Positions 9,424 through 47,367 are shown, counted from the first letter of the stretch. The stretch: DNA of 64,000 nucleotides from Patescibacteria group bacterium (GCA_041738615.1 JBGSPL010000003.1:114352-178351); one strand, 5' to 3'. The notes: generated by a model from the letters alone, not told the origin. Made by a program: numbers and translations.

Positions 9424-9468
9424 ACGTTTCTCCTTCCTATAAAATATACGCTAAATCCTATACAAAAA

Positions 9469-9506
9469 CAAAAATGAGGCATCCAACAAGTTGGAAACCT
9501 CATTTT
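9469..9506 (-). terminator. Hairpin AAAAATGAGGcatccaacaagttggaaaCCTCATTTTT following tRNA-fMet
   Basis: 10-bp stem flanked by A5/T5; reverse complement copy at 10319-10358. Confidence 0.55.
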
Positions 9507-9581
9507 TGGTAGCGGGGGTAGGATTCGAACCCACGACCTTCGGGTTATGAGCCCGACGAGCTGCCACTGCTCCACCCCGCG
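9507..9581 (-). tRNA. Initiator tRNA-fMet (CAT)
   Basis: CGCGGGGTGGAGCAG...TCGGGCTCATAACCCGA (three G:C pairs in anticodon stem)...GGTTCGAATCC...ACCA; closely resembles canonical bacterial initiator tRNA. Confidence 0.85.
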
Positions 9582-10243: not shown

Positions 10244-10318
10244 GGCTGCGTAGCTCAGGGGTAGAGCAGCAGACTCATAAGCTGTTGGTCGGTGGTTCAA
10301 ATCCACCCGCAGCCACCA
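10244..10318 (+). tRNA. tRNA-Met (CAT), elongator-type
   Basis: GGCTGCGTAGCTCAGGGGTAGAGC...anticodon loop CTCATAA...GGTTCAAATCC...CCA. Confidence 0.85.
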
Positions 10319-10358
10319 AAAATGAGGTTTCCAACTTGTTGGATGCCTCATTTTTGTT
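10319..10358 (+). terminator. Hairpin terminator after tRNA-Met; inverted copy of the 9469-9506 element
   Basis: AAAAATGAGGtttccaacttgttggatgCCTCATTTTT. Confidence 0.55.
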
Positions 10359-10367
10359 TAGAAAATG

Positions 10368-12296: not shown

Positions 12297-12354
12297 AGTG
12301 ACTGATTATAGCACAAAAAAGGCCTTGCTTTCGCAAGGCCCACATAAATTATGT

Positions 12355-12627
12355 CTAATTAGATAATTTGAGATCTTCTGGTACTGCTCGCTGCGCAATC
12401 GAAATGGAAAGGAACTCGGAAAGAATTCCACGAAGTCTGTTGGTCTCTTCACTATTCCTCGCTATCTCATCGGTCGATATATTTGCGAATAGTTTATCTA
12501 GTTTCAACATGTCACCCTTAAGCTTTGCTTCTTTGGCCTCTAGGCTCACCTCTGATGATTCTTGTTGTATTGGCAAGGAGCCATCCCAAGATTCTGGGGC
12601 TCTCTCTGTTCTCATACCCTCTGTCAT
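12355..12627 (-). CDS. Hypothetical protein
   Basis: 90 aa acidic coiled-coil-like ORF. Confidence 0.4.
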   Translation of the reverse strand: MTEGMRTERAPESWDGSLPIQQESSEVSLEAKEAKLKGDMLKLDKLFANISTDEIARNSEETNRLRGILSEFLSISIAQRAVPEDLKLSN

Positions 12628-12887
12628 TTCACTTCTCCACTCAGTACGTCATTTACGCTATCTAGGGTCTTTTTATCTAAATACCTAGTAATCTCTACGT
12701 TGCATTCGCTCACTAGCTTCGCCAAGGCATCTATGTCATTACCAACTACCTGCGCAAGCTTCTTGGCATCATTAATGATCTCTTCTGCTACCTCTGGGTA
12801 CTCGTGCTCCAGGGTGCGAATGATTTTGTACAAATTATCGAATGGCATCACGTTCGTATCGGTCATATTTCCTCTTTCTGGGTACAT
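12624..12887 (-). CDS. Hypothetical protein
   Basis: 87 aa; 4-nt overlap with downstream ORF. Confidence 0.45.
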   Translation of the reverse strand: MYPERGNMTDTNVMPFDNLYKIIRTLEHEYPEVAEEIINDAKKLAQVVGNDIDALAKLVSECNVEITRYLDKKTLDSVNDVLSGEVK

Positions 12888-12913
12888 TATATACCAAGCT
12901 ATAAATATCGTAA

Positions 12914-12983
12914 AACGCGAAAGGACCGGAGTCCCAGCTCGCGTTGCACCGAAGTGCTAGCGAACCGGAACCCGGTCCTCGTT
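12914..12983 (-). repeat. 70-nt structured repeat element copy 1 (terminator-like, 3' of island D gene D1); identical to 13754-13823
   Basis: 100% identical 70 nt; on minus strand forms GGACCGG...CCGGTCC outer stem with inner GCAC-UUCG-GUGC hairpin, followed by TTTCGCGTTTTA. Confidence 0.8.
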
Positions 12984-13025
12984 GTGCTTTTACCCTTGCG
13001 GGTCAGGCTGCACGCCTGTGTGGAG

Positions 13026-13568
13026 CTAGAAGCTCTTGAGCTTCTTCTGGAGATCTTTGATTGCGTTGAGGGTCTCCGTGTCCTCGCCCTCGTTGTCGCC
13101 GATGTTCTCGGCGCTGACAACGTACTTGGCCAAACGGTTGATACGTGTCTCGATGGCTTTGCGGGGAAGGTCCCGCCCTTCGACCATGTCGTAGAGCATC
13201 GGGATGACGTTGTCACCGAGATTGCCGTACGCGTAGCCTTGGGCATCCTTGCCCGTGAGACGATCTTCGTAATCCTTCATGGCGTCGTCGAAGTTCACGA
13301 GCAATTGCTTCGGGTTGGCTACCAAGTTCAACTGGTAGAGCTGGTCGTCCTGCTTGACGATCTCCTCCTGGAGAGCGTCGGCGCGCTCGGACTGGGCGTC
13401 GAGTTGCTCCTGAACGGACTTGTACTCGGCCTGGAGCTTCGCGAGTTCCTTACCCTGCTGGATAGCGACCTGGGCCGTCGTCTCGCTCTTGGCCTGCATC
13501 TTGAAAGCAGTGCCGAAGGCGAGTACGAGCAATGCACAGACAACTATCAACGCAAAGATCTTCCTCAT
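13026..13568 (-). CDS. Island D gene D1: secreted coiled-coil hypothetical protein (180 aa from MRKIF)
   Basis: GC-rich; signal peptide MRKIFALIVVCALLVLAFG; RBS GAGAGGGGA 7 nt before ATG. Confidence 0.5.
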   Translation of the reverse strand: MRKIFALIVVCALLVLAFGTAFKMQAKSETTAQVAIQQGKELAKLQAEYKSVQEQLDAQSERADALQEEIVKQDDQLYQLNLVANPKQLLVNFDDAMKDYEDRLTGKDAQGYAYGNLGDNVIPMLYDMVEGRDLPRKAIETRINRLAKYVVSAENIGDNEGEDTETLNAIKDLQKKLKSF

Positions 13569-13709
13569 TTGAGATCCCCTCTCATCGAGCCCCATCGGGG
13601 CCTATTCCACTTGTTTTCGCCGGCGGCGACAGCTGATCACGATGTTCGTGAGCAATTGTCGCCGTGGCGATAGATTCAAGGTGCAATTCTTGATTTCTCA
13701 AGACAGACT

Positions 13710-13737
13710 ATATTAACATACTTGTTTGTTTTGTCAA
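13710..13737 (-). promoter_or_regulatory. sigma70-like promoter TTGACA-N16-TAATAT for D1
   Basis: Perfect -35 hexamer on minus strand in AT-rich linker. Confidence 0.5.
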
Positions 13738-13753
13738 GTGTTTTCTACGCTAT

Positions 13754-13823
13754 AACGCGAAAGGACCGGAGTCCCAGCTCGCGTTGCACCGAAGTGCTAG
13801 CGAACCGGAACCCGGTCCTCGTT
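13754..13823 (-). repeat. 70-nt structured repeat element copy 2 (3' of island D gene D2)
   Basis: Identical to 12914-12983; about 25 nt downstream of D2 stop. Confidence 0.8.
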
Positions 13824-13846
13824 TGTGGTCGCACTCTTGCGACCTG

Positions 13847-14155
13847 CTACCCCCGCTGGAAACCCTGGAAGACGTCCTGAAGCGGACCAGGCACGTTCTG
13901 CAACGAACCGCCTGCGCGGCAGAACTTGGCAGCGTAGTTCGTGACGGTCTCGACGTCGTTGACGTCGCAATCCAGAGGAACACTGCCGATGGTGTCAAGG
14001 TTGCGCTCGAGCTGCTCAAAGGCAACATTCACCGGAATTCCGCCGTGCGGGACGTACTGGAAGCCGTTCTCGGTCATGATCTTGAAGACCGCGCCCATAA
14101 GGGCAAGAACCTTCAACTCATGACGTTCCGTGCCAACCTGCTGATCGCGTGCCAT
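13847..14155 (-). CDS. Island D gene D2 hypothetical protein (102 aa from MARDQQ)
   Basis: GC-rich; AAGGAG RBS 7 nt before ATG 14155. Confidence 0.45.
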   Translation of the reverse strand: MARDQQVGTERHELKVLALMGAVFKIMTENGFQYVPHGGIPVNVAFEQLERNLDTIGSVPLDCDVNDVETVTNYAAKFCRAGGSLQNVPGPLQDVFQGFQRG

Positions 14156-14171
14156 TGTTCGCTCCTTCGTG

Positions 14172-14489
14172 TTAGAGTGTCGCCTCGAGGGCGGCGCGTA
14201 CCTGATAGAGCTTCTTCTGGTTGCGCTGGCCGATCGGGCTGTGCGGGTCGATAACGAAAACCGACTTGACCACCTTGACGATCGGGCTGTCCGCTGAACC
14301 GGCATGGACCTTGGCCGTGAACTTCACGACTTCGGACTTGGCCGGTGCGGCCACGACATCAGGCAACTTCGGGAGATGACCCCGGTTGCTGCCCTTGACG
14401 ATCGGCGCCTTGGTGGCACCTCTGCGAGGCGTGTTGCCACGACGTTCGCGAGCACGCTTGACCTTCTTGGACTCGGTAGGCTTTCCCAC
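14172..14489 (-). CDS. Island D gene D3: small basic hypothetical protein (105 aa, GTG start)
   Basis: Lys/Arg-rich N-terminus; RBS GAGGGGAG 6 nt before GTG. Confidence 0.45.
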   Translation of the reverse strand: MGKPTESKKVKRARERRGNTPRRGATKAPIVKGSNRGHLPKLPDVVAAPAKSEVVKFTAKVHAGSADSPIVKVVKSVFVIDPHSPIGQRNQKKLYQVRAALEATL

Positions 14490-14530
14490 GGTAGCTCCCC
14501 TCGTCTTGTCCCTCAGGGACAGCTGACGTA

Positions 14531-14908
14531 CTAGGACGTCTCGTCGATATAGCGAGCGAGCGTCCAGGTGATGGACAGCTCATCGTGCGCCCCATTGTTC
14601 GTGACCTGCTCAACCTTACCGATCTTCCAACCGGCGTTGAGTGAGAACAGGACCGCGAGCTCCTCGTCAGCACGAAGCAAACGACGAACCTCCTGGACGG
14701 TCTTTCCCGAGAGACCCTCACCGGTATTGATCGTAATCGACCGGTAGTAGGGATCTATAATGCTGGTTGCCTGATAGGGGCGCTGATAGCACTCCTTCAT
14801 CCCACAACCAACAGCGACCGCCAGCGCGACGGCTACCCGATCTTTAACGCCGATGTAAATTTCGTCGACGTCACTAACCACGCTTGCAAGCTCGTCCTTA
14901 TCCAACAT
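14531..14908 (-). CDS. Island D gene D4 hypothetical protein (125 aa from MLDKDEL)
   Basis: RBS GAAAGGAAAC; start placed downstream of leader palindrome; ORF track start (14971) lies inside the palindrome. Confidence 0.45.
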   Translation of the reverse strand: MLDKDELASVVSDVDEIYIGVKDRVAVALAVAVGCGMKECYQRPYQATSIIDPYYRSITINTGEGLSGKTVQEVRRLLRADEELAVLFSLNAGWKIGKVEQVTNNGAHDELSITWTLARYIDETS

Positions 14909-14937
14909 GTCTTGTTTCCTTTCGGAATAGTATGGGC

Positions 14938-14989
14938 ATTGTTTACTGCAAACTATAGACACTATGGTCAACAGTTTGCAGTAAACAAT
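14938..14989. promoter_or_regulatory. Perfect 17-bp inverted repeat ATTGTTTACTGCAAACT-N18-AGTTTGCAGTAAACAAT in D4 leader (operator or RNA hairpin)
   Basis: Each arm is itself a near-palindrome (GTTTAC-T-GCAAAC); lies between promoter at 15025-15053 and the RBS. Confidence 0.6.
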
Positions 14990-15024
14990 AAGTAAAGTTA
15001 CATTTCGCTCTCACGAAACGTTAT

Positions 15025-15053
15025 ATTCTAGCATTTATATCATGTTTTGTCAA
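15025..15053 (-). promoter_or_regulatory. sigma70-like promoter TTGACA-N17-TAGAAT for D4-D3-D2 operon
   Basis: Consensus -35, 17-nt spacer, 5/6 -10, AT-rich linker inside GC-rich island. Confidence 0.55.
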
Positions 15054-15132
15054 TACTACATATGCATAGCGGGCAAGCCCGAATGCATGTGGTATGCAAA
15101 CGGACTCGCCCGCGCGGCTAGTAGCTGGACTG

Positions 15133-15702
15133 CTAGTAGTATTCCTTGGCGGCGTCGTTGAAGCCATCCGCCTCGAGACTGTTGATCATCTGATCGTAGT
15201 CCTTGGTGGCGCTGGGCCAGATATCGGACTTCTTGTACCCCGCCTTCTTGAGGACCTTGAGGACCTTGACGAGCTTGTCGTACTTGCGCCACGCCGCTCG
15301 CCCCTCGATGTTTCCAGGGTACCAGTTCATGAAGCGCGCCACGACTGCCCTCCACCGCCACTCGGGGTGCTCCTTGCGTCCCTCGACGATTCGGATGGTC
15401 GCGTCGAGCGCCATCAGGTAGTGCTCGTCCTCGATGGTGACCTCCCCGCCGTTGGCTTCGCTCCACGCCATGTGGTCGAGAAACTGGCTGATCGGCTCCC
15501 CGGGATACCTGCCGTGAGGTTCAGGCATCGGAGGCGGTTCCTCGGAATCTGCTGCTGCCTGAGCGGCATCTACCGCACTCGTTGCTTCAGGCAAGAAACG
15601 TTGAGTGCGATCAATACTCTTGTTGCACGAACGGATGTAGATGGCGACACCCCCAAGCAAAACCAGTACCAAGATGACGACATGAACCGTACGCAACCGC
15701 AT
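15133..15702 (-). CDS. Island D gene D5: membrane-anchored hypothetical protein (189 aa)
   Basis: N-terminal TM; RBS CAGAGGGGTAGG 6 nt before ATG. Confidence 0.5.
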   Translation of the reverse strand: MRLRTVHVVILVLVLLGGVAIYIRSCNKSIDRTQRFLPEATSAVDAAQAAADSEEPPPMPEPHGRYPGEPISQFLDHMAWSEANGGEVTIEDEHYLMALDATIRIVEGRKEHPEWRWRAVVARFMNWYPGNIEGRAAWRKYDKLVKVLKVLKKAGYKKSDIWPSATKDYDQMINSLEADGFNDAAKEYY

Positions 15703-15852: not shown

Positions 15853-16079
15853 GAGTATTCAATAGAAATACCCTCCCTCCGCGACCTGCAAAATACGACG
15901 CGTAAGGTTCCTCCTTGATTTAGTGATTTCTAGCATTTAACGTTAAGGACTTTAGTAAGCATGACTAGTCGTTGCGAAGGTCCTCAGACCGCCGCATTTA
16001 GAATGTCTTTTTGGATACTTTTGTGACAATGGACAAAAGTATCACGAGCGCCTTACTTTAGTAGGGGCGAAAAAGTATT

Positions 16080-20631: not shown

Positions 20632-20692
20632 CTGGCACTCTTTTATCTCGAGTGCTAAGTAGATATTAGCACTCCTCGTTGCCGAGTGTCAA
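20632..20692 (-). promoter_or_regulatory. Two tandem CIRCE operators (TGGCACTC-N9-GAGTGCTAA and TTAGCACTC-N9-GAGTGTCAA) upstream of hrcA operon
   Basis: Match to CIRCE consensus TTAGCACTC-N9-GAGTGCTAA. Confidence 0.85.
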
Positions 20693-35049: not shown

Positions 35050-36635
<1,586 letters not shown>

Positions 36636-44089: not shown

Positions 44090-44276
44090 AAATACATTTT
44101 ACAATATTTTCTACCACTAGCGCTAGTTAATATGAATAATATTGTTGAACAAATGCCGACCTCAAGCTATAATTACTGCGAAGCTATGTGCTTGGTCCCT
44201 TTACAGATCATTCGCACGGAGGGGCTGAGTACGAAAACCTATACGAATTTTCGAATCCAACTTGTTGGGAATTTTT

Positions 44277-44331
44277 TATATACCCTACCCTGCTTTTTCT
44301 GATATTCATAAAGGGAAGGGTAGGGTATATA
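44277..44331. promoter_or_regulatory. Perfect 15-bp inverted repeat TATATACCCTACCCT-N25-AGGGTAGGGTATATA upstream of island F gene F1
   Basis: Exact reverse complements; AT-rich junction at left edge of GC-rich island. Confidence 0.55.
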
Positions 44332-44437
44332 AGCGACAAGCCGAGGAGGCGAGACGGAGTTGAGAGGTGTACCGTTCTTTTATCAAGACTTGGTTTCGCC
44401 AGCCGGCGAACAGGGTCCCGGAAAGGGGGCGAAAGGT

Positions 44438-46615
44438 ATGTTCTGCGAATCCGCTGACAGTATCACGGTCGGGAAGCGTTCCTTCAGCTTGAGCTACAAG
44501 ACGAACCAAGGGATCATTGCTCTTCTGGAAGGCGCCGAAGGTCCGATGTCTCCGGGAGACAAGAAGAAAGCATACGACTTCATGGATCAGCGGCGCCAGG
44601 AACTCCTTACGCGCCTCGATGACCTCTTCTCAGAAGAGGCTTTCATGAAACTCCAAACGGAGGCTATGAGGCTTCTGCTCACCAATCCCAGCTACAAGGA
44701 GGAAAAGGCAGTAATCTGCCAGATTCTCGGCAACGAGCTCTGGACGATCTACGGCTCATTCGTCAACGGCCGCTACCCAACCCAGATACTCCAAGGACAC
44801 GACGACTCCATCGGCAAACTGGCCAAGGAAACGGAGCATCACAAGCTCGAGATGGTCTACAACCTTCTGGAGCTATGCTACGTGGTGGTCCTGCACATTG
44901 CCGGTATGCACCTGAAGACCGAAGGTGTCATGAGTGAGTGCCACTGTTGGCCTACGCTTCCTCTGAACACCTGGGTTGCAGGGGAGGTCAAAAGCCGTTG
45001 CAATGGTGTGAAGTCACTCCTGGCAAAACGTCGCTATGACCCCAAGGGTTTCCAGTCGGAGCACATTCCTAAGAGCAGCTCCAATGGAACTCGTGGACAC
45101 AAGCGCGCTGCACTTCCGCCTGCAGAGCTCCCCTACGAAGATGGGGATGACGACAGCGATGTTGTCGGCTCGCAAGAAGAAACACTCGACGGCCTCGAAC
45201 TTGAAACCGACTTTGAAGGTCATGACGACGCCGACGATGTATCACCAGCAGAACCCGAGACCGTACACGAACCTGCTGTGGTAGCGAATGTCGAGAAACC
45301 ATATCAGCTAGGTTTCGAGACGGTTCCGCAGGAGTTTCGTGACCACTTTCTGGAAGTACTGAAGTGCACCGATGGTGTCGATGGAGAGCATCCGCTCTCT
45401 ATACACCGCAAGCAGCTGAGCGAGGCGGCGCGGTCTCACCTCCCCGAAATGGGAGTAGCAGGGCTCGTGGTGCCAAACCGCACTGCTGCGCCTGAACCGT
45501 TCCGCCTGTGGTTCACTCTTGCTCCGGAGTACGAAGATCTCATTACAGAGGCTCAATCTGGATCTCTAGACCCATCCATCGAAGCCAAGGAGGCACCGAC
45601 CATGGGTAAGCGGCAACGTCCAGTGCTAGAAGTACTGGCACTGATTCCCGACGACCTGAAGACGTCCGTCGAGGACTGCCTTCGTTGCATCAAGCGACAC
45701 GAGGCTCCCTACAACATCGTGAAGGGGGACCTTGCGGAGAAGACGTTCGGAGACATTCCCAAGCTCCTTGAGCTGGGAATTCTCCGCGGGGCGGGGCAGC
45801 ACAGCCTCTCTTCCCCCTTCACCGCGCTCGTGAAGCCGTACCAAGGAGGACACCTCAAGGGCATGGTCTATACCGGGCCTGCGCAGGAGTCGTCCCCGGC
45901 ACCTGAACCGCCCAGTGTTCCCTCTGCAACGAGCGGCCCCGACGCGAAGTTCCGTCCCGGTGGCAGACGGCCACCGCAGCTGGGCATCGATTCCGTTCCC
46001 GAAACAGCTCGCGAGCTGTTTGTACGGATCATAAAGGTCGCAGAATCTCCGGACGCTATCGTCACCGGACAGCGGCGAACAGGCCTCTTCCACAAGACCG
46101 ATCTTCGGAACGCCGACGCAGCAAGGCTTGTCGAGCTTCTCGACCTAGGACTGCTGCGCTACACCCAGTCCAGCTACCAGTGGCACGTCAAGTCCGAGTA
46201 CTTCGACTTGATCCGCGAAGCCCAGCAGGGCAAGCTGGACTACATCCTCGAGGGCTCTCCGGCAGAACCGACTGGCGCACCCTCGCCCCCGAATCAGGGG
46301 TCCGAGCCCACACCGCCGGTCCCGACACCACCGGCAGGAGCGGGGATCGGGGGCAACCTGGTTCCCTGCACATCTCTTCCTGAATTCGGAGGACTCCAGT
46401 TCGGACTCACACCTGAACTGGTGCTGGTTCTCATAGGACTCAGTGACGTCCAGTTCAATGAGGAGGGCCAGCTCGTGGTCATCTCCAACAACGTCACGGA
46501 CGAGGTTGGCTGGAACGACGAGCTCGTGAGTGAGCTTCTCGCCACCGGTGCGCTACGCTGCACTGATGCGGCTCTTTGCTTCGGGCTCGTCATCGACGCC
46601 AAACTCACCCTCTAG
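44438..46615 (+). CDS. Island F gene F1: large acidic hypothetical protein with three ~85-aa internal repeats (start uncertain: TTG 44360 or ATG 44438)
   Basis: GC-rich; RBS AAAGGGGGCGAAAGGT-ATG; repeats (T/S)VP(Q/E)xxR(D/E)xF...EY(E/F)DLI(T/R)EAQ(S/Q)G(S/K)LD. Confidence 0.5.
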   Translation: MFCESADSITVGKRSFSLSYKTNQGIIALLEGAEGPMSPGDKKKAYDFMDQRRQELLTRLDDLFSEEAFMKLQTEAMRLLLTNPSYKEEKAVICQILGNELWTIYGSFVNGRYPTQILQGHDDSIGKLAKETEHHKLEMVYNLLELCYVVVLHIAGMHLKTEGVMSECHCWPTLPLNTWVAGEVKSRCNGVKSLLAKRRYDPKGFQSEHIPKSSSNGTRGHKRAALPPAELPYEDGDDDSDVVGSQEETLDGLELETDFEGHDDADDVSPAEPETVHEPAVVANVEKPYQLGFETVPQEFRDHFLEVLKCTDGVDGEHPLSIHRKQLSEAARSHLPEMGVAGLVVPNRTAAPEPFRLWFTLAPEYEDLITEAQSGSLDPSIEAKEAPTMGKRQRPVLEVLALIPDDLKTSVEDCLRCIKRHEAPYNIVKGDLAEKTFGDIPKLLELGILRGAGQHSLSSPFTALVKPYQGGHLKGMVYTGPAQESSPAPEPPSVPSATSGPDAKFRPGGRRPPQLGIDSVPETARELFVRIIKVAESPDAIVTGQRRTGLFHKTDLRNADAARLVELLDLGLLRYTQSSYQWHVKSEYFDLIREAQQGKLDYILEGSPAEPTGAPSPPNQGSEPTPPVPTPPAGAGIGGNLVPCTSLPEFGGLQFGLTPELVLVLIGLSDVQFNEEGQLVVISNNVTDEVGWNDELVSELLATGALRCTDAALCFGLVIDAKLTL

Positions 46616-46633
46616 CGCCACAGGCGCTAGAAC

Positions 46634-46690
46634 CAAGGGGCTACCTGCACAGCACTCGAGAGAGTGGCTGCCTGCTGGTAGCCCTCTTTC
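46634..46690 (+). terminator. Long-hairpin terminator copy 1 (GGGGCTACC...GGTAGCCC CTCTTTC) after F1
   Basis: ~85% identical to 47312-47367. Confidence 0.6.
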
Positions 46691-46736: not shown

Positions 46737-46782
46737 ACTGCACGAAACTATGTACCTGTCAGCAACCGACCAAGGGGGATCC

Positions 46783-47304
46783 GTGAATTGCACGTTGCAA
46801 GTCGCCACCATCGTACTTCTTGCGATGCTCGAGGCAGACAAGCTGCCTATCGAGATGATTCCTGACGAGTTTGAGTACGAGATTTACCTGATTGCGCGTG
46901 AGCACGCTCTTACAACCCAGAACTACGAGTTCGCTCTCCATCTCTCCGAGAGTAGAGAGCGTTCACGCTGGATCAAGGAAACCAACGGAGACCGACTGAT
47001 AGTGATATGGGAAGCTCTCGGTTGGGTCGAGGTCGGATTCCATAGTCCGTTCTGGTCCGGCAAGAAGCGCTATGTCCTCCCGCGCCAATACCGCTCCTAC
47101 CCACCATGCGAAAAGCGTGAAATGGACGAAGCGGAGTTGGATCAAGCGCTAGAACAGGCCCGTGAGAGCCTGTCCAAGGGCTATCGCATCACGTTCTCGA
47201 GAGGCTGCTCGCGCGAAACAGCCTGGCGTTTGTTCGAAGCCGGGTTGGTATCCTGCAACCCGCCGAGACAGCCCAACATGGTTCTCGCACCTGAATGCCG
47301 CTAG
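46783..47304 (+). CDS. Island F gene F2 hypothetical protein (~173 aa from GTG 46783; alternative ATG 46753)
   Basis: RBS CAAGGGGGATCC-GTG; upstream promoter; ORF open from 46576 but that region holds F1's terminator. Confidence 0.4.
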   Translation: MNCTLQVATIVLLAMLEADKLPIEMIPDEFEYEIYLIAREHALTTQNYEFALHLSESRERSRWIKETNGDRLIVIWEALGWVEVGFHSPFWSGKKRYVLPRQYRSYPPCEKREMDEAELDQALEQARESLSKGYRITFSRGCSRETAWRLFEAGLVSCNPPRQPNMVLAPECR

Positions 47305-47311
47305 GCGGCAA

Positions 47312-47367
47312 CAAGGGGCTACCCGCACAGACTCGAAGAGAGGCTGCCTGCTGGTAGCCCCTCTTTC
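47312..47367. terminator. Long-hairpin terminator copy 2 after F2 (shared with convergent VanW gene)
   Basis: Divergent copy of 46634-46690. Confidence 0.6.

Follow-up and report, generated by a model that had tools for sequence, protein, structure and literature searches.

Intrinsic terminators usually have a stem of 5 to 14 bp; in high-GC Gram-positive bacteria, forms with a long stem and a weak or interrupted U tract and forms with tandem hairpins have been described. The intergenic RNase III hairpins of phage T7 and the REP/BIME stabilizers of enterobacteria are long intercistronic hairpins that define or protect mRNA 3′ ends. The promoter-early stem-loops (PeSLs) of T4-type phages combine a terminator with a promoter, are found on either side of ORFans, and recombine into mini-circles (PMC2839356, PMC4122927). 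Here, we analyze a 70-nt hairpin element that occurs twice in direct orientation, past the stop codons of two neighboring genes, in a 64,000-nt stretch of DNA from a Patescibacteria group bacterium (GCA_041738615.1, JBGSPL010000003.1:114352-178351; the whole stretch is called the window). The element is a lineage-specific, twice-used, terminator-like 3′ hairpin.

Like intrinsic terminators, it is a G+C-rich hairpin past a stop codon on the coding strand with a U-rich tail directly below the stem and a small hairpin ahead of it; the next promoter follows immediately, which would insulate adjacent units. It differs from them in a paired region of about 60 nt (21 bp followed, past an internal loop, by 4 more), in a CGCG that interrupts the U tract, in a primary sequence kept far beyond the needs of stem stability, and in the use of one sequence at two sites 840 nt apart. 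With the T7 RNase III and REP/BIME hairpins the element shares an intercistronic position, a span of some two helical turns, and a bulge or internal loop. Unlike them, it is not a dispersed multicopy element, and its identity between copies and between species is much higher. As in PeSLs, a terminator stem-loop stands beside a sigma70-type promoter, with the motif on both sides of an ORFan in a plastic region, a layout that would permit excision or insertion of a self-expressing cassette by homologous recombination. In contrast to PeSLs, the element resides in a cellular chromosome, the repeat is confined to the stem-loop and the two promoters are not the same (TTTACG-17-TATAAT and TTGACA-16-TAATAT), the copies number two where PeSLs number dozens, and no insertion or deletion was seen between the two genomes in which it was found. 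The element resembles attC sites in its length and imperfect palindromy, in lying in direct orientation where single-gene units end, in a bulged base, and in an identity between copies that ends near GTT. However, the element misses the R″/R′ consensus, no IntI was found among the open reading frames (ORFs) scanned, the cassettes have promoters of their own, the array is fixed in a diverged relative, and the wobble pairs mark an RNA fold rather than one of single-stranded DNA.

Results

The element forms a strong hairpin on the coding strand

A first-pass annotation of the window had described a long composite hairpin with an outer stem GGACCGG/CCGGUCC and an inner stem GCAC-UUCG-GUGC. Folding gave the structure as described: the minus-strand (coding) RNA reached -44.4 kcal/mol (z = -7.2), and none of 200 shuffled sequences folded as well. 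The plus-strand RNA folded less stably (-33.2 kcal/mol) because the G·U pairs turn into C-A mismatches there. In a sliding fold across the 64 kb, both copies ranked first among the 70-nt folds of either strand. From the foot upward, the hairpin consists of a G·U and an A-U pair, the 7-bp outer stem, a bulged U, a 12-bp stem with three G·U pairs, a UA/AAC internal loop, and the GCAC-UUCG-GUGC tip. It comprises a helix of about 21 bp (2 + 7 + 12) with one bulged U, plus the internal loop and 4 more bp; the paired region of about 60 nt extends from 12921 to 12980 in copy 1 and from 13761 to 13820 in copy 2, and almost every base of the element is paired. The non-Watson-Crick pairs number four, each of them a G·U on the coding strand, and this confinement of the wobble pairs to one strand argues for an RNA and not a DNA fold. 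All 25 pairs are standard in each of the four known copies (100% of cells), the other two being those of the relative described below.

The tail reads UUUCGCGUUUUA in copy 1 and UUUCGCGUUAUA in copy 2. Its common part, UUUCGCGUU, is followed by UUAC in copy 1, where the tail enters the -35 hexamer of the next promoter, and by AUAG in copy 2. An intrinsic terminator is expected to present a G+C-rich stem-loop on the transcribed strand where a transcription unit ends, and the element does so. An RNase III substrate requires at least ~20 bp of near-continuous double-stranded RNA, and the element provides 21 bp with one bulged U.

The element is a true repeat with two copies in the window

A repeat search of the window yielded a single 73-nt direct-repeat family (12911 to 12983 and 13751 to 13823) with one mismatch at 12913/13753. 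Within it, copy 1 (12914 to 12983) and copy 2 (13754 to 13823), both on the minus strand and 840 nt apart, show zero differences over 70 nt. Self-BLAST of the whole window extended the similarity to 91 nt at 92% (13751 to 13841 versus 12911 to 13000) and revealed one further non-tRNA repeat pair, which is described below; the element pair is the only long non-tRNA direct repeat of such quality in the window. The 56-nt hairpin core gave 2 matches in the window at up to 3 mismatches, compared to 0.00 expected from 100 shuffles. The 70-nt direct duplication at 100% identity that the annotation had described is confirmed. A Logan contig from an independent run (L002; SRR28170474) stops exactly 30 nt (k-1) into copy 2, as is expected for a true repeat in a k=31 graph. 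This break and the presence of both copies in a second genome rule out an assembly artifact.

A covariance model (R1) was built from the element and searched against the window and the loci of the relative. Only the four known copies exceeded 27 bits (108.6 bits for copy 1 and 105.7 bits for copy 2), and the next best match in the window reached 22 bits versus 105 to 109 for the copies. An exact-pattern scan of 185,579 GTDB species genomes returned one locus. The element pattern had 0 matches in viral contigs, the core pattern had 0 matches in JGI metagenomes, and blastn against plasmids and phages found nothing. The base-pattern scan of metagenomes produced one match (positions 169 to 234 of JGI contig Ga0315287_10771594, L005), which shares the 16 nt of foot and tail, CCGGTCCTTTCGCGTT, and lies at the end of a G+C-rich 3′ region after a gene for 242 amino acids. 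We rejected it as a copy: its interior contains no hairpin (z = -1.5), and the match is probably due to chance. At the Rfam 15 gathering threshold, only tRNAs were detected in the window, and relaxing the cutoff to E <= 10 brought up no credible family for the element. COG3943 RNA matched copy 1 with 18 bits against a threshold of 71.8 (E = 0.35) and did not match copy 2 or the relative; this candidate was dismissed. No k-mer of the element was overrepresented. The heat shock operator CIRCE (TTAGCACTC-N9-GAGTGCTAA) was likewise rejected, since matches with up to 3 mismatches were confined to 20632 to 20692 and CTAGCAC-UUCG-GUGCAA of the element has the wrong spacing. Those matches are two tandem CIRCE-like operators upstream of hrcA with 2 mismatches each, as expected for a heat shock operon.

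Both copies are nearly invariant in a diverged relative

The only related public genome that we found is a Candidatus Saccharibacteria metagenome-assembled genome (MAG; CAZCRI010000005.1, loci L001 and L003). The stretch between the hydrogenase genes and the GGDEF gene, including dnaKJ and the gene island around the element, is collinear in the MAG and the window, and gene content and order are identical from dnaJ to the kinase gene. Nucleotide identity amounts to about 75% in the island and 82 to 85% in dnaK and dnaJ. Both copies of the element are present in the relative at orthologous positions, recognizable by their copy-specific flanks and tails, and the two genomes differ at 2 positions per 140 nt of element, one per copy. 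In the relative, the bulged U is replaced by A in one copy and an A-U pair by G·U in the other; both private changes are structure neutral. The sliding identity profile peaks at 0.97 to 1.00 over both elements, and the 15 kb compared contain no longer exact matches between the genomes than those over the elements (70, 62, and 60 nt). At fourfold degenerate sites, a fraction of 0.53 differs (700 sites), and the binomial probability of 2 differences in 140 nt under neutrality is P ~5e-42. The identity of the element indicates purifying selection. Since each orthologue keeps its own tail and private change, the identity cannot be ascribed to recent copying or to gene conversion since the split. 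The annotation had reasoned that exact duplication implies recent copying or selection. The selection half of this statement stands; recent copying is refuted by the orthologous sites, the private changes, and the 53% divergence of fourfold sites.

The surroundings evolved differently. The two small hairpins next to copy 1 show a GCAA-to-GAAA loop change and wobble-compatible substitutions in the relative, where the one next to copy 2 reads GGUCGCA-AGGC-UGCGGCC (loop AGAG to AGGC). The hairpin after the GGDEF gene has kept its shape through many compensatory changes. Within the element, almost nothing varies: the covariation analysis met a single one-sided change in 25 pairs and hence no covariation.

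The element lies at the ends of two adjacent putative transcription units

The genes around the element are all located on the minus strand, directly downstream of hrcA-grpE-dnaK-dnaJ, and are arranged in four units. The first comprises g1 (15133 to 15702) and a long hairpin. The second consists of a promoter, g2 (14531 to 14908), g3 (14172 to 14489), g4 (13847 to 14155), and copy 2, and the third consists of a promoter, g5 (13026 to 13568), and copy 1. In the fourth, a promoter, g6 (12624 to 12866), g7 (12355 to 12627), and a canonical terminator (12320 to 12341) are followed by the kinase gene. Copy 1 starts 42 nt past the TAG of g5, and copy 2 starts 23 nt past the TAG of g4, so the distance of 25 to 40 nt given in the annotation was about right. 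Both copies sit at gene 3′ ends and occupy orthologous positions in the relative.

The spacers between the stop codons and the copies hold copy-specific small hairpins on the minus strand: CAGGC-GUGCA-GCCUG and ACCC-GCAA-GGGU between g5 and copy 1 (12992 to 13018) and GGUCGCA-AGAG-UGCGACC between g4 and copy 2 (13827 to 13844). On the other side of each copy, a sigma70-like promoter is predicted on the same strand. The promoter of g6/g7 (TTTACG-17-TATAAT, 12886 to 12914, 10/12 matches) overlaps the last base of copy 1 with its -35 hexamer; that of g5 (TTGACA-16-TAATAT with TG, 13710 to 13737) begins 16 nt past copy 2. Both predicted promoters are kept in the relative.

Bracketed by the two copies, g5 is an ORFan of 180 amino acids with an N-terminal hydrophobic segment and a coiled coil. 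g4, the last gene of the g2-g3-g4 unit, is an ORFan of 102 amino acids that is also called in the Logan contig, and g6, the first gene past copy 1, encodes 80 amino acids. The proteins of g1 to g7 have no family in Pfam, PHROGs, NCBIfam, or PADLOC, and homologues of g3, g4, and g5 were not found beyond the source genome and one MAG. The G+C content at third codon positions (GC3) is 0.68 to 0.81 in g1 to g5 (0.81 in g5; 0.75 to 0.79 in the relative), compared to about 0.50 in core genes and 0.41 to 0.52 in g6/g7. We regard g1 to g5 as a compositionally foreign, probably acquired ORFan island (13026 to 15702; L003 8798 to 11470 in the relative) whose downstream edge is copy 1, because GC3 returns to 0.52 at g6. 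The window itself belongs to the chromosome of an uncultured Saccharibacteria bacterium and not to a phage. It encodes DnaK, DnaJ, TilS, FtsH, MurJ, LepA, and ATP synthase subunits and carries six dispersed tRNAs. A phage origin was rejected, as there was no DNA match in 50,697 phage records and tblastn of two island proteins against phages returned nothing.

Long 3′ hairpins accompany GC3-rich genes

Folding of the 130 nt past every gene end in the window yielded two classes of hairpin. Short ones with runs of 5 to 7 U follow the genes at 12355, 20746, 33938, 43685, 50194, 57725, and 62316. The long class consists of composite hairpins of 45 to 62 nt (-34 to -48 kcal/mol) with interrupted U tails, located directly after stop codons at about eleven loci (4081, 5592/6360, 10964, 13026, 13847, 15133, 24796/26091, 34756, 44360, 46771/47380, and 59059/59743). 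Several tails resemble that of the element (UUUCACUUUAUU, CUUUGCAUAUUU, UUUGCAUUUUAU of the g1 hairpin in the relative, and UCUUUCUUUACC). The g1 hairpin (15068 to 15112; L001 5539 to 5608) has the same design of stem, internal loop, and mini-hairpin and is 93% conserved, its sole stem changes being a GA-to-AG swap that exchanges a G·U and an A-U pair. A long hairpin follows 9 of the 12 genes with a GC3 of at least 0.62 versus 6 of the 69 others (Fisher p = 3e-6), and in four of those six low-GC3 genes the hairpin is convergent and shared with a GC3-rich gene. Within this local class of 3′-end hairpins, which accompanies probably acquired genes, the element stands at the extreme. The annotation had called it far longer than a simple terminator; this holds in general, but it is not an unusual trait here, where about eleven loci are alike.

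The bracket layout recurs around another ORFan of the window. The further repeat pair (46634 to 46690 and 47312 to 47367) consists of hairpins on the plus (coding) strand that are 91% identical over 58 nt and unrelated to the element. In each, the stop codon is followed by a small GC hairpin (46613 to 46630 and 47296 to 47310), an ACAA-type spacer, a long composite hairpin, and a UCUUUC tail. The pair flanks an ORFan (46771 to 47297, plus strand) that has its own promoter, TTTACA-17-TACAAT, after the first copy. Tandem gene duplication was rejected as the source of either pair: g4 and g5 lack similarity and are not paralogues, and the same applies to the neighbors of the second pair, where the bracketed ORFan is unrelated to the gene upstream of it.

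Other structured sequences in the window

Two inverted tRNA-Met genes (9466 to 9581 and 10244 to 10359) each have an identical 40-nt palindromic terminator (CAAAAATGAGG...CCTCATTTTTG), and a 57-nt palindrome (UAUAUACCCUACCCU...AGGGUAGGGUAUAUA, 44276 to 44332) lies in the divergent spacer upstream of an ORFan of 751 amino acids. A large serine recombinase of 517 amino acids is encoded at 35050 to 36635, and its gene ends inside or next to a tRNA-Met gene (36560 to 36635, minus strand); this site may be the edge of an integrated element. In the subset of 39 window ORFs that was scanned against Pfam, no tyrosine recombinase was found.

Several features of the island were also noted. A 56-nt block within g5 (13174 to 13229) is identical to the relative, whereas the rest of g5 is 73% identical; with 53% synonymous divergence, constraint on the protein alone would not account for a block of this length. 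A search for pairing between the element and this block or other island RNA found nothing beyond self-complementarity. The 5′ untranslated region (UTR) of g5 (~135 nt; 13569 to 13709, minus strand) contains a long hairpin (13609 to 13678) and a GGCCCC/GGGGCU hairpin just before the ribosome-binding site; it is 77 to 87% conserved in the relative and has no Rfam match. g3 encodes a very basic protein of 105 amino acids, and its nucleotide identity to the relative (0.88) exceeds the amino acid identity (0.84). Its fourfold sites are 0.84 identical compared to 0.47 genome-wide, and differences by codon position number 12/9/17, which suggests nucleotide-level constraint, a second reading frame, or recent exchange. 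In the g2 leader, downstream of a promoter at 15053 to 15025, a 23-nt inverted repeat (ATTGTTTACTGCAAAC...GTTTGCAGTAAACAAT, 14938 to 14989) resembles an operator or a 5′ stabilizer and is kept in the relative with a longer spacer (L003 ~9510 to 9570). The dnaJ-g1 spacer measures 377 nt here and 164 nt in the relative, with about 180 nt (15880 to 16060) lacking a counterpart. The hairpins of the g1 5′ UTR differ wholly in sequence between the genomes, and both are long perfect stems.

Discussion

An RNA stability or processing element had been among the roles proposed in the annotation, and a role in RNA 3′-end formation, stability, or processing is the best reading of a strand-specific structure at gene 3′ ends. 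Structure potential, strand bias, placement, conservation, and membership in the local hairpin class are observed properties of the element. Its position, strand specificity, tail, and hairpin class lead us to treat it as a 3′-end module. With modest confidence, we favor the view that it is a strong 3′-end hairpin that acts as terminator and stabilizer for two adjacent transcription units, g2-g3-g4 and g5; termination and stabilization themselves are what we infer. In the proposed mechanism, the coding-strand RNA would fold into the bulged 21-bp helix, the internal loop, and the C(UUCG)G mini-hairpin, followed by UUUCGCGUU(U/A)U. RNA polymerase would terminate at the element, or the transcript would be trimmed back to the hairpin. 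As a factor-independent terminator, the very strong hairpin may compensate for the weak U tract; it may also shield the 3′ end from exonucleases and insulate the promoter that starts 0 to 16 nt further on. The layout of hairpin, promoter, ORFan, and hairpin could have arisen when promoter-gene-terminator cassettes were integrated or assembled through recombination inside a terminator that they had in common: such a bracket is expected if a circle of promoter, gene, and terminator enters an identical resident terminator by Campbell-type recombination. We infer this cassette-insertion origin from the layout only.

Several observations weigh against this view. Through its interruption, the U tract has 4 U in its first 8 positions (UUUCGCGUUUU), and a terminator scan that asks for at least 5/8 does not call the element, although it calls canonical terminators elsewhere. 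The window also holds canonical short terminators with runs of 5 to 7 U, such as the one after g7 (12320 to 12341; GGGCCUUGC-GAAA-GCAAGGCC plus U6), which is absent from the 46-nt spacer of the relative. None of the four copies shows a change in the UUCG loop, the UA/AAC internal loop, or the tail, a fixity that a generic terminator does not need, and in the same time the neighboring small hairpins, the hairpin after the GGDEF gene, and the terminator at 12320 to 12341 drifted or were lost. We also count the lack of covariation here. With regard to an origin by cassette insertion, g5 is present in both genomes, no gain or loss at the site was seen, and the promoter is not part of the repeat. 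The interrupted U tract and the base-by-base conservation are left unexplained by a generic terminator, and for this reason a sequence-specific role is kept as the main rival or as an addition.

Such a role would make the element the site of a dedicated RNA-binding protein or of a double-strand RNase (RNase III-type processing), through which one factor would jointly set how stable the g2-g4 and g5 transcripts are or how much read-through occurs; this is compatible with termination. The near-absolute conservation of loops, internal loop, and tail against saturated neutral divergence, with adjoining small hairpins that evolve freely, would fit this role, as would a helix of ~21 bp with one bulge, the length class of RNase III substrates, and a structure confined to the coding strand. 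However, no binding protein emerged as a candidate: the island proteins have no family matches, and g3, for which there was no PDB sequence match, was discarded when its AlphaFold model proved unusable (pLDDT 57, pTM 0.24). Nor does the element match an Rfam family, and the constraint, resting on two genomes, cannot be mapped to particular bases. We judge this role unlikely. A related possibility is that the hairpin is a sequence-specifically recognized module that delimits acquired, self-expressing ORFan cassettes in Saccharibacteria and is the cellular counterpart of PeSLs. This proposal would explain the freezing of every base, loops included, in the face of saturated synonymous sites, as well as the like bracketing of another ORFan. 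If it were true, the bracketed gene would be expressed, excised, or amplified under the control of a dedicated RNA- or DNA-binding factor or of recombination between the copies; we consider it doubtful. A recombination module, by which the copies would mark cassette boundaries, has a homologous version (PeSL-like), in which the 70-nt repeats would excise, insert, or amplify the promoter-g5 unit, and an attC-like one that would serve a site-specific recombinase. The direct repeats flank exactly one promoter and ORFan unit, identity between them ends at ...CGCGTT, and a deletion between them would leave a functional g4-hairpin-promoter-g6 junction. The second locus has the same layout, the bracketed genes are ORFans in GC3-rich, probably acquired DNA, and PeSLs offer a precedent (PMC2839356, PMC4122927). 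On the other hand, no insertion/deletion polymorphism was seen, gene content and order being the same in both genomes, and the copies are not homogenized, as their private changes and orthologous copy-specific tails show. They number two per 64 kb, with one exact-pattern match among the species genomes scanned; unlike in PeSLs, the repeated part excludes the promoter, and the sole recombinase found is the serine recombinase 22 kb away. The attC-like boundary suggested in the annotation was not supported: candidates for R″ (RYYYAAC) are GCACAAC and CACAAAC, but R′ would be GTTTTAC or GTTATAG instead of GTTRRRY, failing RRR, with R-L spacers of 2 and 6 nt to the inner stem, and the downstream genes have their own predicted promoters in a fixed gene content. 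Altogether, a recombination module appears improbable.

Two further explanations have little to commend them. A pair of sibling, independently transcribed small RNA genes, also raised in the annotation, would account for a stable, conserved, strand-specific structure with a terminator-like end. Yet no promoter-like site is predicted upstream of either copy (12984 to 13060 and 13824 to 13900, minus strand), the upstream sequences differ, nearly all bases are paired and leave no single-stranded seed, and Rfam has no match; such genes are very improbable. A selfish dispersed repeat of the REP, MITE, or Correia type, or a pair of DNA uptake sequences, that happens to lie in two intergenic spacers is the least credible explanation of all. 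As in REP/BIME and Correia elements, an imperfect palindrome lies in intergenic DNA past gene ends, and the window encodes ComEC, but there are two copies in 64 kb with a wide gap in bit score to the next match, one locus in the species genomes, none in viral contigs, plasmids, and phages, and no core pattern in JGI metagenomes. No k-mer is overrepresented, terminal inverted repeats with target duplication are missing, and the positions in the relative are orthologous.

As a terminator/stabilizer hairpin, the element would represent ordinary biology in a poorly studied phylum and provide a concrete example of how the compact genomes of Saccharibacteria close and insulate transcription units. 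Short hairpins with U runs would close ordinary genes here, and long hairpins with interrupted tails would close GC3-rich, probably acquired genes. The frozen hairpin against saturated neutral divergence and the repeated bracket layout hint that ORFan cassettes may carry terminators along with them and that these may aid their placement. If true, this travel of terminators would bear on gene gain in reduced epibiont genomes.

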